18,719 nt of DNA. Source: Verrucomicrobiota bacterium (lineage in GTDB: Bacteria > Verrucomicrobiota > Verrucomicrobiia > Chthoniobacterales > UBA6821). The stretch is from the NCBI GenBank assembly GCA_008932965.1, contig WBXG01000034.1, positions 1 through 18,719 of the forward strand, in the 5' to 3' direction. This document shows positions 10 through 18,719 of the stretch, piece by piece (the first letter of the stretch is position 1; each line of letters starts with the position of its first letter). The translations under genes were made by a program, and so were the position numbers. The notes under the pieces are model-generated. The model saw nothing but the letters and a program-made list of their open reading frames with translations, did no database searches and was not told the DNA's origin.

Positions 10-1203
10 ATGGATGCTGCGTTAGACTCCCATTTTGATTTGGGCAGTATGTACACATACAGCCCTGCATCAAAATACTCGCCTGCCTTACCCCATCAGC
101 CTTCGCGGCCTCCTCGTCACGATCAGTATGAAACATCCGGGCTAGCAATTCTCATCCTAATTCTGGCACTTACCCTTTTTAGTCCAGGCGCCTTTTGTTT
201 AGAGATCGATCTTGTCACGGTGGATCGTCCCAACAACCAAGCAGATTCACGAACCGGCAAAGGAACGGTCCCTTATGTTTATGAAATAGGGAAATTTGAT
301 ATCACTGCTGAGCAGTATTGTGCATTTCTAAATGCTGTAGCAAAAAAAGATCCTCATCATCTTTATCATGAGGCAATGCTCAAAGATGATTTTATTAATG
401 AAATCCACCAGGAAAGGAATAAGGAAGTGGATTATTATTTTGTAACGCCCGGGAGAAAGGATTTGCCTATCGCCGGTGTGAGTTTTTTTAATGCTGCACG
501 ATTCTGCAACTGGTTAGAAAACAGACAACCGAGTGGTGCAGAAGGTCCTTTAACGACCGAAGACGGAAGTTATTTGATAGAGGAGAATTCTTGTACTCAA
601 CGGGCACAGGCTCACTGGTTCATCCCAACAGAAAATGAATTTTACAAGGCTGCTTATTATCACAAGGAAGATCCATCTCATTACTGGAGTTATGCTACTC
701 AAAGCGATACTCCCCCTTGCAATAGCGTTGCGCCAGAGGATAACCAAAAAGATTCACTTCAAAAAAATGCCAACTACTGCATCCATGAAAAACCAGCTAT
801 GAATTTCCCCGATGACCTAACAAGCGCCGATTTAACTCCAGTCGGTATTTTCAAGGGATCACCGGGACCCTTTGGGACGTATGACATGAGCGGCAATGTT
901 TATCAATGGACAGTAGAACAGTACAAGGGGGTATCTGAAAAACAGTGCAATGCGACCTCTTTATTAATGCTACGGGGCGGCTCACGTTATGATGGAATGC
1001 GCTGGGGAAATGGTATTATAACTGATCGCCTCGACTATTTAGGAGTGAGGTATCTAAGGCCAACACTAGCATCTTGCGACGTTGGCTTTCGTGTCATTCA
1101 CTGCAATCTAACGCCACCATTGATGCATGCTAGAATTTTATTTAATGAACCTTTTAATGAACCAGGGTTTGAAGAAGTAAAAGCACTTTGGGAATATTTC
1201 TAA
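10..1203 (+). CDS. FGE-sulfatase (SUMF1-like) fold family protein with a Pro-rich N-terminal tail and one hydrophobic anchor or signal segment
   Basis: 397-aa ORF with ATG at 10 preceded by GGAAG. Family hallmarks are present: SGNVYQWT, LRGGS and DVGFRV near the C-terminus. A hydrophobic stretch GLAILILILALTLFSPGAFC follows a 43-aa Pro-rich tail. The frame is also open at positions 1-9, so the true start could lie upstream of the window. Confidence 0.7.
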   Translation: MDAALDSHFDLGSMYTYSPASKYSPALPHQPSRPPRHDQYETSGLAILILILALTLFSPGAFCLEIDLVTVDRPNNQADSRTGKGTVPYVYEIGKFDITAEQYCAFLNAVAKKDPHHLYHEAMLKDDFINEIHQERNKEVDYYFVTPGRKDLPIAGVSFFNAARFCNWLENRQPSGAEGPLTTEDGSYLIEENSCTQRAQAHWFIPTENEFYKAAYYHKEDPSHYWSYATQSDTPPCNSVAPEDNQKDSLQKNANYCIHEKPAMNFPDDLTSADLTPVGIFKGSPGPFGTYDMSGNVYQWTVEQYKGVSEKQCNATSLLMLRGGSRYDGMRWGNGIITDRLDYLGVRYLRPTLASCDVGFRVIHCNLTPPLMHARILFNEPFNEPGFEEVKALWEYF

Positions 1204-9633: not shown

Positions 9634-10173
9634 TTACTTCCACCAGATTCCATCTGAGGGGAGAGGTAGTGCAGCATTAGATTCAAAGATAGGAGGGTCA
9701 GACCAGGTTTTGGAGTAAGGAGGATTGGAGAACATATGCGTAATGTCATAGGGGTCGATTTCTTGACCAGCAAAGGGACCTTGATTTGGAGAAATGATAT
9801 AATAGAAATAAGTATTTTCAAATGTTCTCTGCTCCAAAACCCTTTTGAGAGTCACCACGGTTCCTTTATGTAAGACTCCCTCTAAGGTGACATGATTATT
9901 TTTAGAGCCGATATATTTATCATCGACTATTTCACTTAGGCCATAAGCAAAATTTCCAAGATTATGCGTCGTTCCCAAACATAATTTGCATGGGGAAGAG
10001 AGATAGGAATGCTCTCCATAGTCATTGAAGTAGTAGATATAAAAATCTTGCTGCAGAACAAATTGCTTACCAATGGCCTCTCGGTAAGGTTTTTTTTTGC
10101 TCAGATCGATCGTGCAGGAGGTTAGAGCACAACCCAGGAAGATCACAATAACTCTTAAAATACATCTTTTCAT
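9634..10173 (-). CDS. small secreted lipoprotein; candidate cognate immunity protein of the upstream Rhs toxin tip
   Basis: 179-aa ORF whose ATG lies 17 nt after the rhs stop, with GGGGGA upstream. Signal peptide MKRCILRVIVIFLGCALTSC has lipobox L-T-S-C (Cys20). I recognise no family motif. The immunity role is inferred from position only. Confidence 0.6.
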   Translation of the reverse strand: MKRCILRVIVIFLGCALTSCTIDLSKKKPYREAIGKQFVLQQDFYIYYFNDYGEHSYLSSPCKLCLGTTHNLGNFAYGLSEIVDDKYIGSKNNHVTLEGVLHKGTVVTLKRVLEQRTFENTYFYYIISPNQGPFAGQEIDPYDITHMFSNPPYSKTWSDPPIFESNAALPLPSDGIWWK

Positions 10174-10190
10174 GATCTCTAGTCCCCCAC

Positions 10191-13100
10191 TTAATGCTGT
10201 ATTAAAAAGGGAAGGTTCCTTTGGAAGGAGTGATTTCCTAAAACATCGAAAAAGTAATTATCTGTTTCTAAGGTGCTATCCCATTTTTTAAAGTGACTAC
10301 TTGGAAACAATATTGAAATCAGATCGAACCGATTGCGTACATTGGTGACACTTTTAAAACCTACCTCATCTTTTTCCATATAGCGCTGGGGATTAAGCCC
10401 GATATACTCAAAATGAGCTTTTGCACTAGGTGTCATGTAAGGAGATGCATTGTTCACTACCACAGAACCATTACTATAGGCAAAGGCTTTTCCTCCATTA
10501 TTGTGATTCACAATATCTGCAAAATAGAGGGAGCGAAGATCGATAAAGCCAAGCTGTTCATAGAAGGCCCTTGGGATATCTTTCCAGCCACTACCATAGT
10601 TATTGATACGGAGTACAGCATGTTTATCGAGTCCTAACGAAGTGGCTATGGAATATGCATTTTTTTGTGCACGCAGAGCCTTTGTAAAAATTCCATTAAT
10701 GCTCATGATTCGGTCTTGATTAGAGGTCTCTTGGAGGGCTTGATTTCTATCTTTTAAAAAATCGGGATTATTTAAATCCCCATCAACATAACTGAGCTCC
10801 ATTCCTAAAATTGTGAATAAAATATTTTTCAGGCTTAAGCTTGGATTATTCATATCATGAACGATGTTCGTGGCATTTTGATACTCCATATCACTAAGGA
10901 GTCCAAGTTCCCTCCCCTTCTCCACACACCTTCCATCCGAATCCAGCCCATTCACCGGATCGCCGTTGCAGTAATCATATAAACTCAAGCTTGCATCATG
11001 CCCGAGGGGGTCTGGGGATAAGAACCTCCCACTCTTAGGTTCATAATACCGAGCCCCCAACGAGTAGAACCCAGTCCAGTCGAGGTAACGACCACGCCAT
11101 TGAGGAACCAGATCAGCATTGACGCTGGAGCCTGGCATCGCTCCGTAACCTCCTAAAACGTTCCCCCAAGGAGAAAAGCCAACATCAGTTGTGATCCCTA
11201 ACGCATCTCCAAAGAAGTTATTAACGACTCCGTGAACTTGGCCAGAGGCTTCTAAAAGGGTTGCTTCGAGTCCTCCTATTCCTTGCGCTCCGCCGTAGGT
11301 GCCACTCCGATCAGGGCCAAAAAGGTTCCAAGTGCGACCAAAATTATCATGACCGAGTTCTAAAAACTCATATTCGGGGTCATAATAATAGGTGAGTTTG
11401 AGTGGGGTAGAGCTTTCTTGGGTGCCAGTGGCATCGCTGTAATGAGTCTGAAGGCGCCTTCCAAAGCCATCATAGATGGTAGTCCAATTGTAGCCTTGGT
11501 TCTTTTCATTACGTTTTTCTACACGCACAAGCCTTCCAAAGCTATCCCAAGTGAGTGACTGAGTTGTACTCTTTTCTATGGAGCGACTCGTAACTTCTCC
11601 AAGGCCGTCATAGCCTATATTCCAGGGGTAGTAGTACCAGCCACTAGAGTAATCGGTATCACGTGTGGGCTGATCAAAACTATTTTTGGCTTGAATGACA
11701 TCGCCGGTAGAACCCTCTAAGTTGAGTCCTGTGGGACTTACCGAGGAGGAGACTCTTACTCCTAAATCGTCGAAGGCATAATGAGCAGTATGTGTTCCAA
11801 TAGGAAATACACTTGGATTGGCAGATTCCATCAGGGTGAAGGGCTCCTGAATCAATCGACCATGATCATCATACTCGTAGTTGCGTGTTTCATTTTGAGT
11901 GCCCACGATGCTATAGCTAGTGAGTTTGTGATCTGATCTCCAGGATAAATTTTCAGTGGATGCATCCGGGAGTTTTGTGCGGGTGATATTTCCAAAACCA
12001 TCCCGGGTAAGTTCCGTAGAGCCGGAGGGAGTTTGCTTGGTAAGAAGAAGTCCATGATCCCCATACGCATAGGAGCAAGTCCCCAGGAGGCTTTCTGATC
12101 CAGTGAGTAGTCCAAGTGCATTGTAGGAAAAATGATAGTCTGGTCCTTTTGTATCATGATTCCATTTAAGTTCTGTGCGGTTCCCTGACGTATCCCAAGT
12201 TTGACTCCAGGAGGAGATAACCTCTCCGTTAAGGGAGGTCGACTCACTGGTTAAATGACCTTCGGGGTCATACTCCCTCGAAACCAATGTCGAGGGACCT
12301 GTGGAGGTCGTGGTATAACCTTGAGCTACTGAAGTAAGTAGGCCCCGTGGGTCGTAGGTATAGGTGGTGTTTTGATTTTGCTCTGGGATTTTAGAGCCAC
12401 TGGAGTTGATAGAGGTAGGATGTCCCCAGCCATCGTAGGAAAGTGAAGTCGTAAAACCACGTGGGTCGGTGATAGAGGAGAGGAGTCCATGAGCATAGGC
12501 ATAGGTATGATTACGGGTCGTGCTTGGGTTGCTTCCAGTGCTTCCAACCAAGGCATCACTTACTTTTTGACCTGCTTTGTCGTAAGAATGTGTTTCAATA
12601 AGCCCTTCGGGCATGGTCCGTTTGAGGATTTCTCCTGCAGGATTACGTTCGTAGGTAACCGAGCTATTACTTCCACTATCGCCGTAGGGAAGGACTTCAG
12701 TTTCAATCTGGTTGAGCGCATTGTAAATCCAGTGACGTTGAAGACCACTCTCATCGCGTGACCAATAGAGGTTTCCATTGGGGTCATAGGCATTCATTTG
12801 GAAGGCTCCATTGGGGTGGGTGATTAAAAGTGGATGCCCTTGCAAGTTTGTATAGGTGGTGGTTGTGATGGCGTTACTTCCAGTGCCAAGGGTTGTGGTC
12901 ACACTTTGATGATCACCGGAGTATTGATTGCTCTCATTATAAGCCACACTTCCATCGGCATTAAATAAGGTAGTGAGTACCACTCTTCCAATCCCATCTA
13001 AAAAGGTATTTTGCCATTCTCCTTTGCCATTGACCCAGCTTATGCAGCCTGGTTTGTAAAGGTATGATTTTTCTGAAAGGGGTCCTGCTTCGCTTTTAAC

Positions 13101-16100
13101 TCGACTTAGTCCATCGTAGCTATAATTCCACGTGCTTCCGGCAAGATCGGTTTTGGAGGTGAGGTTGCCTCGTCCATCATGGCTCTCAGAAGTACTCCCA
13201 AGGTTCTTTCCAGAGGTATCGGTAAAGGTACGGGTGATGCTGTTACCTTGGTAGGTTGTTTTACAGATCGTTCCATTGGGGAGGGTTTCCTGTACAAGAC
13301 GTCCTGCTAAGTCGTAGCGGTAGCTACTCGTCGTTCCATCGGCATGGGAGGCTGATAAGATTTGACCTAGTGCGTTGTAGTTGTAATTTTCACTTCCACC
13401 TAAAATGGTGGTGTGGGTGGCCACGTTGCCTCCTGGCTCATAGGTGAAGGATTCGCTTGCTGCCCCGTCGCCCAAGGAACGTGAAAGCATGTTACTAAGG
13501 GTATCGTAGGTCATGGTTGTTTTATGACCGTTAGGGTCGGTGATCGAGGTGCAGTTGCCAAGCAGGTCGTAGCCATATTCTGTGGCTGCTATTCCATTAC
13601 TTGTGACTCCTTTTCCATCAGTACTAGCAGCGCTAAGCCAGGTGCCTTTGTGAAGAAGGTGTCCACCTCGATCGTAGTCGTAGTAGGTGTAATCGACGGG
13701 GTTGAAGCGGGCTCCTTGTTCCCATTCGAGTTCTCCATTCCAATTGTAGTACCAGCCATGCCAGTCAACCGGCTTGTTATCGGTGCCGAAGGTTTCTTCA
13801 AAGGTGCGGCGGCCAAAAGCATCATAAGAATATTTTTTTAAGATTCCTCGCGAGTCGGTTTCAGAGACGATTTCTCCACGGCGGTTGGTGGTGATCGTCG
13901 TTTTAACTTCTGGATCCTTGCTTCCTGTGCTCTTGGTGATGGAGGTTAGGAACCCGTGGGTGTCGTAGCTGGTGCTGGTGGAAGAACCATCAATGCTTAC
14001 CAAGGTAGGAAGTCCAAAATTGCCGTAGTTGAGTATGGTGGAGCTCACGGTTTTCCCGTCTGAGGTTTTGACAATGCTCGTGGGATTGAAAGGATGACTT
14101 GAATCGCTATAGCTGTAACTTGTTGAGTTACCAACTGGATCAGTGATAGAAGTCACTATGTTGTTTCCGTTGTAGGTCAATGTTGTTTTGGCTATTTCGT
14201 TGCTTCCACTTCCAGTAATTTTGCCGCTTAGGGCGCGACTTGTGAGGTTACCTTGGTTGTCGTAGGTGAAATTTGTGACAAGGCCACGTTTGTTGGTAGA
14301 GCTGTTGAGTACTCGAACGATAACGTCTTTAGACCAGGTTTGAGTAATCCACTCTTGAGTAGTGGTTGGATTGATTCCGCTACCAGTAGCAGGGTAGGTA
14401 ATTTTACTAATTTGGCTACCTGCAATCGTGTAGGTTGTTATGTTACCACTTGCATCTTTGACGCTGGTGGTGCCATTAATCGTATTGTCACTGTTGGTAT
14501 AGGTAACGTTGTAGGTAAAGGTGGCACTTGTAGTTGGTGTTGGACTCACTCCTACAGTGGAAGCTTGAGTGACAACACGTCGCTCAGCGTCGTAGCTGTT
14601 TTGTAAGATGCGGCCGTTGGGATTGGTTTCTTGAGTAAGGAGGTGAGTTCCTTTTTGATATCTGTAGGTAATGACCGAATTGTCCGGCAATGTCACTTTG
14701 ACGAGGTTGCCTTCTTTATCATAGCTGTAGAGGAGCCGACGACCATCGTTAGAAAACGCTTCTATAATGTGAGCATACACGTCGTAGTGAAAATGGATAT
14801 TGTTTCCGTTGTTAGAAGTGACGGCACTCAGTTGCCCGTAGTCATTGGCTTTGTTGTTGGTACCATAAGTGAATGTGTAGCTGTTTCCTTGATTATCTCG
14901 CCATGAATCGAGGTAAGGACGGGTTCGGGTGATTTCGGGAGATCCTAAAACAGGAAATGATTTTGTGGCAAAGGTTCTGATATTTCCATTTGATCCTTTG
15001 AGAATGTAGGATCCATCAGCAGTTTTGCTGATCACGTTATTGAAGAGGTTTTGGCTTGGACCAGGTGTGCCATCGTTGGCATTGATTAAATCAGGATTGT
15101 CTGAGGCTAGTGGCTTCCAGTTTTTTTGATCTGCATTGTAGTGATAAGCAATAACCGATCCATCCATCTCAGCTGCGTAGATCATGCTTGCTGGCGTGGT
15201 CTCATTTCCATCGGCAGAGAGCATGAGGTAAGGAAAGGTACCCAACTTCCATCCACCACCTAGGTTATTATCGCTCAAATTCTGTGATCCGTAGGTGCGG
15301 CGTAGTTCCAGTGGCATAGGACCATTGAGTTGGAGATCAAGTGCGTTTACATAAAATTCTCCATTTACCACACTCACCGGATCCATCACATAGGAGAGGA
15401 GTTTTCCGTAGTAAGAGGGAGTACCTATGAATCCTATGTTTGCTACCTCTTTTTTTAAAATAGCTATTTGCGCTGGAGGTAGAGGAGTGGAGGGCTGTTG
15501 GTTGGGTATGTTAGTTCCACTTCCTGGTTGAGTAGGCGGAGTCGTGTTTGATGGTGGAGGTAGAGGAGTGAAGGGCTGTTGGTTGGGTATGTTAGTTCCA
15601 CTTCCTGGTTGAGTAGGCGGAGTCGTGCTTGATGGTGGAGTTGCAGGAGAATTTGTGTTCGATGTAGGGTCTCCACCCTTGTATTGATTCTGAATCTGCT
15701 TCAGTGCCTGATCCATCTGTACTTTGTAGATCCAATCATTAAGTTGTTTGTTAAGATCATTAAGTTGTTTGTTAAAATCATTGTTCTCATCAGGATTGAA
15801 GGAGGAGATGGGAGTGGTAGAGCCTCCGTAGCCGCCGTTATCAATACTATGGGAATCAGAAATTAGAGCTCCAATAGAATCTTGTGATATAGTGAAGGCC
15901 CCCATGCCTGTATAAGGCTTCCCTTGTTGGCCAGGAGCAGTGACAGGGGTTTGGTTGATGATGGCAATGTTTGTCTTTTTTCCTGCATCTGCTTCTTGAG
16001 TGCCAGGACGAACAAAAAGATCTAAGATAGCTTGAAAAAGGCCGTATCGAATTGCCCAAGCTGCAAGAGAAGCAGTAATGGTATTTAAGTTGGATGATAT

Positions 16101-18719
16101 TTGATAATTTTTATTTATTTCGTCATTGCAATTATAGAGCATGAGGAAGGAAATGTTTTTTCCAGGAGTGGTAGCAATCGCTTTTTCAGGAGTCCAGCCC
16201 TGAGCAATATCGAGTAGTCGCACTGTGGAAATAGCACTCTTTTGATTAAAAAACTCATTAATAATGCGATGTTCTTGAGAAGAGGCTTCTAGGAGAAGAA
16301 GCTTTTGACAATCTAACATTACTGCTGGAGATGCTCCCGATTCACTATGAAAACTATTGTTACCAATACTGACATCTTTGTGAAAAAACATATCTACTCG
16401 TGGATAGACCAAATTAAAATCGAGCTTCCCTTTGTTCATAGTGGTGACAGGTGAACCATTGGCATTCCGTTCAGGGCTTAATTTTGCTAGTCCCTCAGAT
16501 CGTGTGGTAACAATATGATTTTTTGTCAGATTTTCTAATTCTTGTTGAAATTGGCTGCAGTAGCCGTAGTAATATTTACCCATGAGCTGGAGAATCTGTC
16601 CTGTGGCTATTTCGGGATCAATAGGAAATTGAGGATCTGCTTTGCGTTGATTTTCATAATAAACATATTTTTGCCATTCAAAGTCCTTCATCTTTTCGCT
16701 CACGCGTCCATAGTTAAGCGCCAAAGCAGCCATATCTCCTTTTTGTAATGGCCGCTCTTGAGTGATAGCAATGCTTTCATTAACGCCAGGAAATTGGTTG
16801 AAGTAAGTCATTTTTGTCAGATCTACCTGTTGGTGGTGCTTTGTGATGATTTGGTAGGAAAGATAATTATCACTTGGAGTAAGAGTCGCACTGATTTTTT
16901 GAGGAGTTAACAAACTACCTGTGTCCGGGTTCGTACCCTGATTGAATGTATGCGAGGTGCTTTCTTTGTTTCCTGAGCCACTATCGTAGGCTTCTAGAGA
17001 CAGTGTTATCGTGTAGTTTGCTGTCCCTGGAATAATTTGATGGGAAAGTAAAAGCCGTCGATCGTGCAGATCGGCAAAATGCATGGTACCTGTTTGTAGT
17101 AAGAGTGGATTAGTAGTGTCACTAGCTCCCTTGCCATTGCGATTACTAAAAACTTTGATTTCAATGGTATCAAACATTTTTTCATCCAATGTAGAAACAA
17201 CATTACTACTAGTAATGAGTGGGGTTTGCCAAGGCCGTGGAAAGTCGTTCCAGCTGGCGTAATCATGGAATTGATTTGCAAATTTAATTCCCACATCATC
17301 CAGATTGAGATTGTTTTTTTTGAGCTGCTCTTCTGCATAAAGTGGGAAAAGCGTTCCTGGATTATCTTCGCTTAAAATATCAGGATCATTTGTGTTCCAG
17401 GGGTTGCGAATGACAGGGTCGTTATAGAGATATTTTAAAATCCACTTGGTTGCTGTGTTATAATCATTTGGAAAATAGTTCCAAAGGTCTCGTCCTTCGA
17501 TCACTTTTGTATCTTTAATCCATGGAAAAAGATGAATCCATTTTCCATCTATATAAGCTGTTACCCATGGGTAGTTTACTGGAATAAGTTCAGGCACTGG
17601 TACCGGTCCCAGGAATGTCATTGTTCCTCGAAGCTGCGTGTGAAGCATCTTGCTGAGCTGTTCATCGAACATGAGTGTTTTATCATGCTCAGGAAAAACG
17701 TAAGCAGCAGGGACTCCAGCTTTGCGAAGTAAATAAATCAAGAGCCCACATTGCTCGATAGGCGATCCTTGACCTTCCATGTAGGTTGCCAAGGCGTCAC
17801 GCATGATTCCTTGGGAATTAATCGAAAAAGGGGAGCTATTTTCCGTCGTGTTAAATCCGACTGCATCGGTAAGTTCAATTTCGTTTTGAACATAGTTAGC
17901 AAGTGCCAATGGGTCTTTTCCTTTTTCCTCAATAAGTTTGTCGAGTTCAGGATGAGTTTTAACCTCGGGACTAGTGTCAACTTTTGTATATTGATCTGGC
18001 TTAAGGGAGATTAAATTATCTTGAACTGGCTTGGAATGGTGAATGAGCTCATCCACGCTTTTTCCCTCAAACTCACTAGGAAGAGCTTTTCCTTGAAAAT
18101 GGGGTAGTGTCAGTAAGGTCGTACTCCAGGGAGCTAGATCGTCGAAATCGAGTGTATAACTCAAATTACAAGCAGAGCCACTCTTATCCTCTTCTTGAGC
18201 CATATCTACTATTTGACCATTAAGTAAAACTATTCCTTTCATGCTTACTTTATAAAAAAAGTTAGCGTTGTCTGCTTTGCAGGTAATCAATAAAGGATAT
18301 AATGTCTCCTGTCCCCAGATATCAGATGATAATGCTGCAGCCACATATTGAAGTTGCATTTCAAAATGCAGAGGCTTCCCATTAATGGTTTCTGCAATGG
18401 TAAATGTTTTGGAAGTAGCATGTTTCATAAGATTTTCCCATTCATTTACTTTAGGCAAGGAATAAGGGACAACAAACACACTCTTAACATTAGTATTTCC
18501 GTTTACAAAACTCTCTTTATCGTAAACTTCTATTTGCATGTCGATATTCCCTATTTTAGTAAAATCTTCTCCTCCTGACGCAATAGCAAACGAGTAAGAT
18601 TGCTTTGGATAAAGAGGTGTTCCTCCACTACTACTTCCAAAGGCAACAAAAGGAGGTTGGTCTCCAATCGCAGTCGAGTTAATTTTAGGAAGGGTATTAA
18701 CCAGAGCATAACTTATTAC
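10191..18719 (-). CDS. giant Rhs/YD-repeat polymorphic toxin, partial (N-terminus beyond the right window edge)
   Basis: The ORF track gives 2782 aa from ATG 18539. My translation of 18540-18719 in the same frame has no stop (VISYALVNTLPKINSTAIGDQPPFVAFGSSSGGTPLYPKQSYSFAIASGGEDFTKIGNID-MQIEV...), so at least 2842 codons are visible. There are dozens of YD repeats (YSYDKEGNL, FTYDNQGNL, YGYDLLGNC, YRYDLAGRL, YEYDDHGRL...). The Rhs N-terminal plug motif DPVSVVNGEFYVNALDLQLNGPMPLELRRTYGS and the core end GARYYEPKSGRFLSPDPLG...YDYCNGDPVNGLDSDGR are both present. Confidence 0.95.
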   Translation of the reverse strand, partial: VISYALVNTLPKINSTAIGDQPPFVAFGSSSGGTPLYPKQSYSFAIASGGEDFTKIGNIDMQIEVYDKESFVNGNTNVKSVFVVPYSLPKVNEWENLMKHATSKTFTIAETINGKPLHFEMQLQYVAAALSSDIWGQETLYPLLITCKADNANFFYKVSMKGIVLLNGQIVDMAQEEDKSGSACNLSYTLDFDDLAPWSTTLLTLPHFQGKALPSEFEGKSVDELIHHSKPVQDNLISLKPDQYTKVDTSPEVKTHPELDKLIEEKGKDPLALANYVQNEIELTDAVGFNTTENSSPFSINSQGIMRDALATYMEGQGSPIEQCGLLIYLLRKAGVPAAYVFPEHDKTLMFDEQLSKMLHTQLRGTMTFLGPVPVPELIPVNYPWVTAYIDGKWIHLFPWIKDTKVIEGRDLWNYFPNDYNTATKWILKYLYNDPVIRNPWNTNDPDILSEDNPGTLFPLYAEEQLKKNNLNLDDVGIKFANQFHDYASWNDFPRPWQTPLITSSNVVSTLDEKMFDTIEIKVFSNRNGKGASDTTNPLLLQTGTMHFADLHDRRLLLSHQIIPGTANYTITLSLEAYDSGSGNKESTSHTFNQGTNPDTGSLLTPQKISATLTPSDNYLSYQIITKHHQQVDLTKMTYFNQFPGVNESIAITQERPLQKGDMAALALNYGRVSEKMKDFEWQKYVYYENQRKADPQFPIDPEIATGQILQLMGKYYYGYCSQFQQELENLTKNHIVTTRSEGLAKLSPERNANGSPVTTMNKGKLDFNLVYPRVDMFFHKDVSIGNNSFHSESGASPAVMLDCQKLLLLEASSQEHRIINEFFNQKSAISTVRLLDIAQGWTPEKAIATTPGKNISFLMLYNCNDEINKNYQISSNLNTITASLAAWAIRYGLFQAILDLFVRPGTQEADAGKKTNIAIINQTPVTAPGQQGKPYTGMGAFTISQDSIGALISDSHSIDNGGYGGSTTPISSFNPDENNDFNKQLNDLNKQLNDWIYKVQMDQALKQIQNQYKGGDPTSNTNSPATPPSSTTPPTQPGSGTNIPNQQPFTPLPPPSNTTPPTQPGSGTNIPNQQPSTPLPPAQIAILKKEVANIGFIGTPSYYGKLLSYVMDPVSVVNGEFYVNALDLQLNGPMPLELRRTYGSQNLSDNNLGGGWKLGTFPYLMLSADGNETTPASMIYAAEMDGSVIAYHYNADQKNWKPLASDNPDLINANDGTPGPSQNLFNNVISKTADGSYILKGSNGNIRTFATKSFPVLGSPEITRTRPYLDSWRDNQGNSYTFTYGTNNKANDYGQLSAVTSNNGNNIHFHYDVYAHIIEAFSNDGRRLLYSYDKEGNLVKVTLPDNSVITYRYQKGTHLLTQETNPNGRILQNSYDAERRVVTQASTVGVSPTPTTSATFTYNVTYTNSDNTINGTTSVKDASGNITTYTIAGSQISKITYPATGSGINPTTTQEWITQTWSKDVIVRVLNSSTNKRGLVTNFTYDNQGNLTSRALSGKITGSGSNEIAKTTLTYNGNNIVTSITDPVGNSTSYSYSDSSHPFNPTSIVKTSDGKTVSSTILNYGNFGLPTLVSIDGSSTSTSYDTHGFLTSITKSTGSKDPEVKTTITTNRRGEIVSETDSRGILKKYSYDAFGRRTFEETFGTDNKPVDWHGWYYNWNGELEWEQGARFNPVDYTYYDYDRGGHLLHKGTWLSAASTDGKGVTSNGIAATEYGYDLLGNCTSITDPNGHKTTMTYDTLSNMLSRSLGDGAASESFTYEPGGNVATHTTILGGSENYNYNALGQILSASHADGTTSSYRYDLAGRLVQETLPNGTICKTTYQGNSITRTFTDTSGKNLGSTSESHDGRGNLTSKTDLAGSTWNYSYDGLSRVKSEAGPLSEKSYLYKPGCISWVNGKGEWQNTFLDGIGRVVLTTLFNADGSVAYNESNQYSGDHQSVTTTLGTGSNAITTTTYTNLQGHPLLITHPNGAFQMNAYDPNGNLYWSRDESGLQRHWIYNALNQIETEVLPYGDSGSNSSVTYERNPAGEILKRTMPEGLIETHSYDKAGQKVSDALVGSTGSNPSTTRNHTYAYAHGLLSSITDPRGFTTSLSYDGWGHPTSINSSGSKIPEQNQNTTYTYDPRGLLTSVAQGYTTTSTGPSTLVSREYDPEGHLTSESTSLNGEVISSWSQTWDTSGNRTELKWNHDTKGPDYHFSYNALGLLTGSESLLGTCSYAYGDHGLLLTKQTPSGSTELTRDGFGNITRTKLPDASTENLSWRSDHKLTSYSIVGTQNETRNYEYDDHGRLIQEPFTLMESANPSVFPIGTHTAHYAFDDLGVRVSSSVSPTGLNLEGSTGDVIQAKNSFDQPTRDTDYSSGWYYYPWNIGYDGLGEVTSRSIEKSTTQSLTWDSFGRLVRVEKRNEKNQGYNWTTIYDGFGRRLQTHYSDATGTQESSTPLKLTYYYDPEYEFLELGHDNFGRTWNLFGPDRSGTYGGAQGIGGLEATLLEASGQVHGVVNNFFGDALGITTDVGFSPWGNVLGGYGAMPGSSVNADLVPQWRGRYLDWTGFYSLGARYYEPKSGRFLSPDPLGHDASLSLYDYCNGDPVNGLDSDGRCVEKGRELGLLSDMEYQNATNIVHDMNNPSLSLKNILFTILGMELSYVDGDLNNPDFLKDRNQALQETSNQDRIMSINGIFTKALRAQKNAYSIATSLGLDKHAVLRINNYGSGWKDIPRAFYEQLGFIDLRSLYFADIVNHNNGGKAFAYSNGSVVVNNASPYMTPSAKAHFEYIGLNPQRYMEKDEVGFKSVTNVRNRFDLISILFPSSHFKKWDSTLETDNYFFDVLGNHSFQRNLPFLIQH
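10194..10928 (-). other. C-terminal variable toxin tip (245 aa) of the Rhs protein, function unassigned
   Basis: This is everything after the ...DPVNGLDSDGR core-end motif (CVEKGRELG...FLIQH). It has lower GC than the YD core. Motifs IMSINGI, LRINNYGSG, AFAYSNGS, RFDLIS and GNHSF occur in Ser-Asp-His order. Confidence 0.6.
10929..15383 (-). other. Rhs shell: N-terminal plug motif, YD-repeat array and Rhs repeat-associated core domain
   Basis: The region starts with DPVSVVNGEF (D codon at 15381-15383). It ends with WRGRYLDWTGFYSLGARYYEPKSGRFLSPDPLGHDASLSLYDYCNGDPVNGLDSDGR (R codon at 10929-10931). Confidence 0.85.
15475..15640 (-). repeat. 81-bp tandem duplication (2 copies, 79/81 identical, plus 4 nt of a third) encoding a Pro/Thr-rich linker
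   Basis: Copy 1 (15475-15555) and copy 2 (15556-15636) differ at two positions. They are in frame (27 aa each), encoding TPPTQPGSGTNIPNQQP(F/S)TPLPP... Confidence 0.9.
15735..15783 (-). repeat. 21-bp tandem repeat (about 2.3 copies) encoding NDFNKQL-NDLNKQL-NDW
   Basis: ATCATTAAGTTGTTTGTTAAG at 15735-15755 and ATCATTAAGTTGTTTGTTAAA at 15756-15776, then ATCATTG. In frame with 7-aa units. Confidence 0.85.
17511..17915 (-). other. transglutaminase-like (papain-fold) segment in the N-terminal module of the Rhs protein
   Basis: DPLALANYVQNEIELTD ... MRDALATYMEGQGSPIEQCGLLIYLLRKAGVPAAYVF ... NYPWVTAYIDGKWIHLFPWIKD matches the transglutaminase-core layout (G-x-C...LLRA-GIPAR ... HAWxEVY-x-GxW-DPT). 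The Cys codon is at 17748-17750. Tyr and Phe sit where His and Asp are expected. Confidence 0.5.

Follow-up and report, generated by a model that had tools for sequence, protein, structure and literature searches.

What does the 245-residue C-terminal tip of the giant Rhs protein encoded on contig WBXG01000034.1 (assembly GCA_008932965.1, a Verrucomicrobiota bacterium) do, and what would protect its producer from it? The contig was analysed over its full 18,719 nucleotides, hereafter the window. An earlier note, made from the letters of the window, had placed the tip at 10194–10928, right after the core-end motif, had read in it the linear Ser-Asp-His logic of an alpha/beta hydrolase, and had proposed a neighbouring lipoprotein as immunity candidate. 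Our analysis supports the reading of the tip as a minimal alpha/beta hydrolase with a predicted S152–D202–H233 triad, and the tip and the lipoprotein appear to form a true toxin–immunity module, with the periplasm as its probable site of action. The placement of the tip is confirmed by translation of the open reading frame (ORF); the strings quoted from it (IMSINGI, LRINNYGSG, AFAYSNGS, RFDLIS, and GNHSF) are all present; and the proposed nucleophile is indeed encoded at 10473–10475, by AGT on the minus strand. The coordinates given at the time were thus right, the minus-strand location of the gene having been left unstated, a minor omission. The tip and its predicted working parts are as follows.

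10194–10928, minus strand: C-terminal toxin tip, 245 residues (2538–2782 of the Rhs protein), from the translation; its homologues are likewise the C-termini of giant proteins.
10722–10928, minus strand: tip residues 1–69, a helical N-terminal region with a conserved (S/D)GD motif, from the AlphaFold2 (AF2) model and the family alignment A1.
10194–10721, minus strand: tip residues 70–245, the minimal alpha/beta-hydrolase catalytic core, as predicted by AF2 and matched by Foldseek.
10692–10697, minus strand: N78–G79, following the first core strand (SINGI); Asn in 24/25 and Gly in 25/25 aligned sequences.
10473–10475, minus strand: S152 (S2689 of the full-length protein), predicted nucleophile in an A-Y-S-N-G elbow; codon AGT, 25/25.
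10323–10325, minus strand: D202, predicted catalytic acid, after strand 193–199; codon GAT, 25/25.
10230–10232, minus strand: H233 in GNHSF, predicted catalytic base, on the loop after strand 218–220; codon CAC.

The assignment of fold and triad is supported because the structural model is confident, the list of structural matches is uniform, the putative catalytic residues occupy canonical positions, and the family conserves them. The AF2 model of the tip, built from alignment A1, reaches a predicted local distance difference test (pLDDT) score of 90.7 and a predicted template-modelling score of 0.87, without a low-confidence segment. Four helices (residues 2–7, 13–26, 33–49, and 55–66) make up residues 1–66, and an alternation of strands and helices begins at residue 74; the helical N-terminal region is possibly a lid or a linker. 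In the model, S152 falls exactly between strand 146–151 and helix 154–164, the place of a nucleophile elbow, and is followed by D202 and then H233, on loops after strands, in the canonical order of nucleophile, acid, and histidine. When the model was compared with the PDB by Foldseek, the top 50 matches were all alpha/beta hydrolases, led by the cutinases of Trichoderma, Aspergillus, and Paraphoma, Bacillus subtilis LipA (1i6w, itself described as "a minimal alpha/beta hydrolase"), CALB, and PETases. The leading matches had probabilities of 0.97–1.0, and template-modelling (TM) scores rose to 0.56 when normalised on the target. In BFVD, an unnamed protein ranked among the best matches at E = 6e-6 and a DUF676 protein at E = 1e-4, along with class-3 lipases and esterases of the LysB type. 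Predicted structure and alignment together display the central parallel sheet with helices on its flanks, the small-x-Ser-x-small elbow, and the nucleophile–acid–histidine order that characterize alpha/beta hydrolases, and the fold first guessed from linear motifs has withstood both structure prediction and the Foldseek comparison.

To assemble the family behind the alignment, phmmer was run exhaustively with the tip over 1.84 billion cluster representatives (E ≤ 1e-3); this returned 27 proteins, about 25 of them genuine homologues. Two proteins of repetitive sequence (P0013 and P0020), whose matches were scattered over numerous short segments, were dropped as spurious. A k-mer-prefiltered protein search recovered one homologue from the tip alone and 10 from a profile. 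Alignment A1 holds 25 sequences with 23–67% identity to the tip, and its invariant columns are G79, N110, D117, A137, S152, G154, N196, and D202. With the serine and the aspartate in every sequence and H233 in 22/25 in its own column (24/25 within four columns), the Ser-Asp-His motifs are evidently not a product of chance. The elbow follows a family consensus of A-H-S-Q-G-[ST], rendered A-Y-S-N-G-S in the sub-clade of the window. By analogy with lipases, N78–G79 stands at the position of an HG-type oxyanion-hole motif and probably helps form the oxyanion hole. Outside the triad lie further invariant polar residues, N110 (10599–10601), D117 (10578–10580), and N196 (10341–10343), which might orient the aspartate (compare the Asn in Tle3), bind a metal, or line the substrate pocket.

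The tip itself has no significant match in Pfam, NCBIfam, PADLOC, or the sequences of the PDB, and the three curated libraries likewise yielded nothing for the lipoprotein or when run on all members of the two families; a solute-binding protein from the single-sequence PDB search (3gfv, E = 0.2) and the NCBIfam ACC-deaminase model (E = 0.11) were rejected as noise. Individual members match, weakly, the Pfam models Palm_thioest, DUF676, Abhydrolase_6, Cutinase, and Tle3, and no family other than hydrolases recurs. When the profile of alignment A1 was set against the PDB, its matches (E of about 0.1–1) were confined to the nucleophile elbow, GYSQG or AHSxG, in cutinases and in lipases from Geobacillus. 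No confident match to a different toxin family emerged from the Pfam, NCBIfam, and PADLOC searches of the tip, an outcome that leaves the hydrolase proposal standing.

How is this domain carried? In the roughly 25 relatives, the homologous region is always C-terminal. Several carriers are Rhs proteins (P0002, P0004, P0007, P0012, P0017, and P0024), and on Rhs proteins with homologous tips other N-termini occur, comprising RCC1/WD40, PD40, and Big_7; others are giant proteins without RHS repeats, two of them with an internal RES domain. Given this C-terminal placement on Rhs and non-Rhs carriers alike, the tip domain is a mobile polymorphic-toxin cassette. A genome scan with the close sub-alignment found a single locus, in a Spartobacteria metagenome-assembled genome (MAG). 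The RES-domain proteins that bear the hydrolase domain together with the lipoprotein module, both non-Rhs, are P0015 (locus L012, 3001–8924) and P0027; three tyrosine-integrase genes lie directly upstream of the P0015 gene, and P0015 might combine two toxins in one protein and belong to a mobile element. One Rhs carrier, P0002 (locus L004, 1981–5394; tip identity 49%), ends in ...ILKNKNTI, without the catalytic histidine and the last ~12 residues, and may represent a truncated or decaying allele; its gene stops 11 bases short of the contig end.

If the tip is a toxin, what would neutralize it? The gene directly downstream of the Rhs gene encodes a lipoprotein, and the elements concerned, here and in related loci, are these.

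9634–10173, minus strand: 179-residue lipoprotein, the candidate cognate immunity protein, recognized from its ORF, signal peptide, and lipobox L-T-S-C20.
10174–10190, minus strand: 17-nucleotide spacer between the Rhs stop codon and the lipoprotein ATG, with a GGGGGA Shine–Dalgarno-like run.
L005 5934–6240, L003 5739–6224, and L001 673–993: conserved spacer of ~300 nucleotides in related loci.

The lipobox cysteine, Cys20, is encoded at 10114–10116, and the protein is entered in GenBank as a hypothetical protein (KAB2643729.1; locus tags DVB29_). Sixteen homologues were found, none of them annotated, in which the signal peptide and the lipobox cysteine are conserved, as is the C-terminus (NPPY.KTWSDPPIF...ALPLPSDGIWWK); among the 17 members, no Pfam match was obtained at E ≤ 1. 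The short spacer with its Shine–Dalgarno-like run suggests that the Rhs and lipoprotein genes are co-transcribed.

Conserved gene order carries the case for immunity. In all seven of the distinct related loci with a readable downstream gene, a lipoprotein homologue lies directly downstream of the toxin domain; in L005 and L006/L007, for instance, it comes directly after an Rhs gene with a tip of the same family. The arrangement extends to distant relatives, two Rhs (P0017 and P0024) and two non-Rhs (P0015 and P0008), where a lipoprotein of 154–182 residues follows in 4/4 cases and is recognized by the A3 profile at E = 2e-45, 4e-11, 3.5e-7, and 5e-4 (computed with Z = 1e6). Tip and lipoprotein moreover diverge in parallel over six loci, the tips being 65, 61, 26, 24, 28, and 27% identical and the lipoproteins 65, 60, 38, 24, 24, and 22%. 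Two loci that might have been scored as devoid of the lipoprotein, L001 and L003, were rejected as such, since their contigs stop inside the spacer of ~300 nucleotides that precedes the lipoprotein in L005. In Spartobacteria-type loci, this conserved stretch separates the tip stop codon from the lipoprotein signal peptide, compared with only 17 nucleotides in the window, and the gene caller draws it into an ORF of 259 residues (P0032). A candidate cognate immunity gene directly downstream, as expected of Rhs toxins, is thus present. Because the lipoprotein family follows the toxin domain in all loci read, distant non-Rhs carriers included, the pair is best regarded as a true toxin–immunity module, and the earlier nomination of the lipoprotein as the immunity candidate gains strong support from close and distant relatives alike.

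The protein that bears the tip is itself readily classified from the following features.

10191–18539, minus strand: Rhs polymorphic-toxin gene, 2782 residues, from the ORF list and its translation; stop codon at 10191–10193.
10932–11171, minus strand: Rhs-associated core-end domain TIGR03696, residues 2457–2536 (E = 4.8e-16; 59 bits, cutoff 32.5).

The RHS_repeat model PF05593 matches in 15 stretches (E = 2.9e-71) and TIGR01643 at E = 8.7e-59; the RHS_core and YD repeats are matched too, and DUF6531 occupies residues 1053–1099. The core-end domain finishes ...DPVNGLDSDG(R), the core end reading ...LYDYCNGDPVNGLDSDGR with the 245-residue tip coming next; exactly 245 residues lie C-terminal to ...YDYCNGDPVNGLDSDGR, and the tip begins at residue 2538. 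A YD/RHS repeat shell and a core-end domain just before a variable C-terminal tip, the two marks of an Rhs polymorphic toxin, are therefore both present. By analogy with known Rhs biology, the core-end region would be the autoproteolysis site at which the tip is freed. Residues 1–1040 (15420–18539, minus strand) contain no signal peptide, PAAR, VgrG, or other recognisable delivery domain; a weak transglutaminase-like match covers residues 213–337 (E = 0.008), and the N-terminal ~1000 residues have no match among PDB sequences. The linker preceding DUF6531 contains in-frame tandem repeats at 15474–15640 and 15734–15782, the first of 81 bp in 2.1 copies with a Pro/Thr-rich unit (TPPTQPGSGTNIPNQQP.TPLPP), the second of 21 bp in 2.3 copies, coding for NKQLNDL.

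Base composition sets the cassette apart from its shell. Tip and lipoprotein gene together (9634–10928) have a GC content of 0.38–0.39, the tip alone 0.382, compared with 0.473 for the Rhs core (10929–15400) and 0.44 for the window; low values of this kind are typical of toxin/immunity cassettes that can be exchanged, and are consistent with horizontal transfer here. Scans for promoters and terminators near the two genes gave no more matches than shuffled controls, and tblastn found no counterpart among the plasmids of PLSDB. Ordinary chromosomal genes fill the left half of the window, with cmk, an acyltransferase, an ABC-2 transporter, queF, queC, purC, a tyrosine recombinase, and fabI; at its left edge lies an FGE-sulfatase/SUMF1-like protein (10–1203, plus strand; PF03781, E = 6e-22) that is unrelated to the tip.

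Which mechanism would tie these parts together? We favor, with a probability of roughly 0.6, a minimal serine esterase borne on an Rhs protein, acting in the periplasm in a phospholipase A-like manner and held in check by lipoprotein immunity. The tip would be freed from the Rhs shell by autoproteolysis, as the core-end motif implies, and would fold as a hydrolase of the cutinase/LipA/DUF676 type, with ~175 residues of core and a helical N-terminal region of 70. In the target cell's periplasm, the Ser152–Asp202–His233 triad, probably aided by the N78–G79 loop at the oxyanion hole, would cleave an ester-linked lipid of the envelope, most likely a membrane phospholipid, as do the Tle phospholipase A effectors. 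The producer would be protected by the downstream lipoprotein, probably co-transcribed, which would reside in the periplasm and bind the toxin. Since the presumed dedicated inhibitor is a lipoprotein and would be exported to the periplasm, it is there that the toxin should be dangerous, and this in turn indicates an envelope substrate; a phospholipase A-like attack on the membrane is rated the most likely on the precedent of Tle and Tli, so that the nature of the substrate is proposed by analogy.

Several observations weigh against this proposal. The E-values of the Foldseek matches in the PDB are modest (at least 3.7e-3), and the global TM scores, once normalised on the query, fall to 0.3–0.47. 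No lipase family is reached at significance by any sequence profile. The 18.7-kb window contains no type VI secretion system (T6SS) or other secretion genes, and the N-terminus of the Rhs protein matches no assigned domain. The AF2 model of the lipoprotein is beta-rich and moderately confident (pLDDT 68), and its fold search against the PDB returned noise only (E ≥ 0.4), with no match to a known fold. Finally, Tox-ABhydrolase-2, the published toxin domain that best matches the motifs of the tip, was described as having no specific relationship to lipases and an unclear substrate, and was placed among "miscellaneous toxins" (Zhang, de Souza, Anantharaman, Iyer, & Aravind, 2012; PMC3482391).

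The last of these points leads to the alternative that survives best: might the same fold and triad, at the same periplasmic site, act on something other than bulk phospholipid? The bond attacked might then belong to an acyl chain on lipoproteins or on lipid A, to a thioester, to peptidoglycan (at an O-acyl or a peptide link), or to a periplasmic protein, the tip in this last case being a peptidase. Hydrolysis of another ester of the envelope has to be taken seriously, if as a clearly less probable option, because the nearest neighbors of the tip are cutinases, LysB (a mycolyl-arabinogalactan esterase), palmitoyl-protein thioesterase, and DUF676 proteins, not classical phospholipases, and because no specific affinity to lipases was seen for the motif-matching family. 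The invariant N110, D117, and N196, which have no assigned role, fit such a divergent chemistry as well. On the other side, the characterised alpha/beta-hydrolase toxins that act in the periplasm between bacteria, Tle1–4, are all phospholipases A (PMC9860674), and nothing in the tip points to any particular alternative substrate. One version of this alternative deserves separate mention: the tip and lipoprotein might constitute a distinct periplasm-acting toxin–immunity family, borne by Rhs proteins and by other giant proteins, some with a RES domain as well, whose minimal cutinase-like esterase hydrolyzes not bulk phospholipid but a different ester of the envelope, for example an acyl group of lipoproteins or lipid A or an ester of the cell wall. 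We consider this rather unlikely; if true, it would amount to a new chemistry of interbacterial killing, not another Tle.

More doubtful is the notion that the tip acts in the cytoplasm, on acyl-ACP, acyl-CoA, or another ester, or is directed at eukaryotes, the lipoprotein then serving as an accessory, export, or receptor factor. Cytoplasmic action is common among Rhs tips, the Rhs protein has no signal peptide, and Tox-ABhydrolase-2 was paired with the cytoplasmic SUKH immunity proteins, with host-directed copies in an amoeba endosymbiont (PMC3482391). Against this stand the features of a cognate inhibitor, namely one lipoprotein family that follows the toxin domain in every locus read, on any carrier, and diverges in parallel with it; nor is there a second small ORF between the tip and fabI that could be a candidate for cytoplasmic immunity. 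A host-directed effector, which the earlier note had raised for the case of an intracellular organism, is likewise not favored, the cognate immunity gene being present and the source an uncultured Verrucomicrobiota MAG without evidence here of host association. Least of all do we credit an inactive, decaying cassette or a hydrolase resemblance that is an artefact of AF2 and Foldseek: the elbow does carry Tyr at the position of the consensus His (AYSNG for AHSQG), the close relative P0002 does lack the catalytic histidine, and the Foldseek scores are not high, yet the ORF is intact, seven invariant residues (S152, G154, D202, G79, N110, D117, and N196) are kept along with the histidine, AYSNG is common to the whole sub-clade, and a model without a low-confidence segment comes with uniform structural matches.

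What would the periplasmic esterase reading mean if confirmed? It would enlarge the set of interbacterial weapons known from the Verrucomicrobiota by an experimentally unexplored family of alpha/beta-hydrolase toxins and a new family of lipoprotein immunity proteins, a phylum with, to our knowledge, almost no characterised antagonism systems. It would provide a very small esterase scaffold (~175 residues) together with a dedicated protein inhibitor, and would indicate that Rhs shells can carry lipase-type cargo that acts in the periplasm, beyond cytoplasmic nucleases or ADP-ribosyltransferases. It would, moreover, offer the first functional access to a motif family left by Zhang et al. (2012) as "miscellaneous, substrate unclear". 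The concept of a lipase-like effector matched by a lipoprotein immunity protein has already been established by Tle and Tli; the evidence supports viewing the tip and lipoprotein as an instance, from an uncurated sequence family, of this well-known design of lipase-type effector and lipoprotein immunity on a polymorphic toxin.

How, then, does the module compare with known systems? First, three alpha/beta-hydrolase toxin domains were defined in silico in polymorphic toxins (Zhang et al., 2012; PMC3482391). One of them, Tox-ABhydrolase-2, has the signature "NG, [DE], [KR], HSxG, D, H", RHS and FilH carriers, a distribution over phyla that includes the Verrucomicrobia, and Imm-SUKH as its listed immunity (PMC3482391). 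The tip presents the same elements in the same order (N78–G79, D117, R120, YS152xG154, D202, and H233), with Y in place of the H of HSxG; among the 25 sequences of alignment A1, 11 have R and 14 have Q at position 120, and most elbows read AHSxG. Immunity differs too, SUKH proteins there contrasting with an uncatalogued lipoprotein family without a Pfam match here. Since the elements come in the same order, the tip family is probably Tox-ABhydrolase-2 or a sister of it, a comparison drawn with the published motif signature. The earlier statement that the tip could not be matched to any named toxin family therefore holds for curated libraries and gives way where this signature is concerned. Our search of a literature library found no paper besides that of Zhang et al. 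using the Tox-ABhydrolase name, no experimental work on the family, and no characterised cutinase-like Rhs tip.

Second, the cutinases (PF01083; 4pse, 8jct, and 7cy3) and LipA (1i6w) are the best structural matches, similar in size and with the same Ser-Asp-His order, and the cutinase GYSQG and LipA AHSMG align with the nucleophile elbow of the tip. Sequence identity is a mere 10–14%, and the tip has its additional N-terminal helical region. The PDB cutinase profile match is confined to the elbow (E = 0.11); an hhalign comparison of the tip family with an approximate LipA sequence likewise aligns the elbow only (probability 26%) and is uninformative about the Asp and His. The threshold of the Pfam Cutinase model PF01083 is not reached, the tip giving no match and two of the 25 relatives matching below the cutoff (E ≥ 0.0087). 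These enzymes are secreted for nutrition, whereas the tip is proposed to be a delivered toxin.

Finally, the functional precedent is set by Tle1–4, which are phospholipases A with an alpha/beta-hydrolase fold, a GxSxG motif, and a periplasmic site of action. The genes of the corresponding Tli immunity proteins adjoin those of the effectors, and their products are either periplasmic or anchored as lipoproteins in the outer membrane, as exemplified by Tle3/Tli3 of AIEC (adherent-invasive Escherichia coli; PMC9860674). The structural neighbors of Tle3 are palmitoyl thioesterase and lipase (PMC9860674), a neighborhood that it has in common with the weak matches of the tip family. Shared as well are the alpha/beta-hydrolase fold, the small-x-S-x-G elbow, and the S-D-H triad, all predicted for the tip, and an immunity gene immediately downstream that encodes a lipoprotein, here recognized by its predicted signal peptide and lipobox. 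Unlike Tle1–4, the tip has no match to DUF2235 (Tle1), the Tle3 model is touched by two of the 25 members (E = 0.13), and no Tle structure figures among the top 50 Foldseek matches; unlike Tli, the lipoprotein is unrelated to any solved fold. T6SS Tle effectors ride on VgrG; in the Rhs protein neither a PAAR nor a VgrG domain is present, the 18.7-kb window, the part of the genome covered, contains no T6SS genes, and a much smaller core of ~175 residues is fused to the Rhs shell. By analogy, we propose that the tip functions like a Tle, yet by sequence it is not one.

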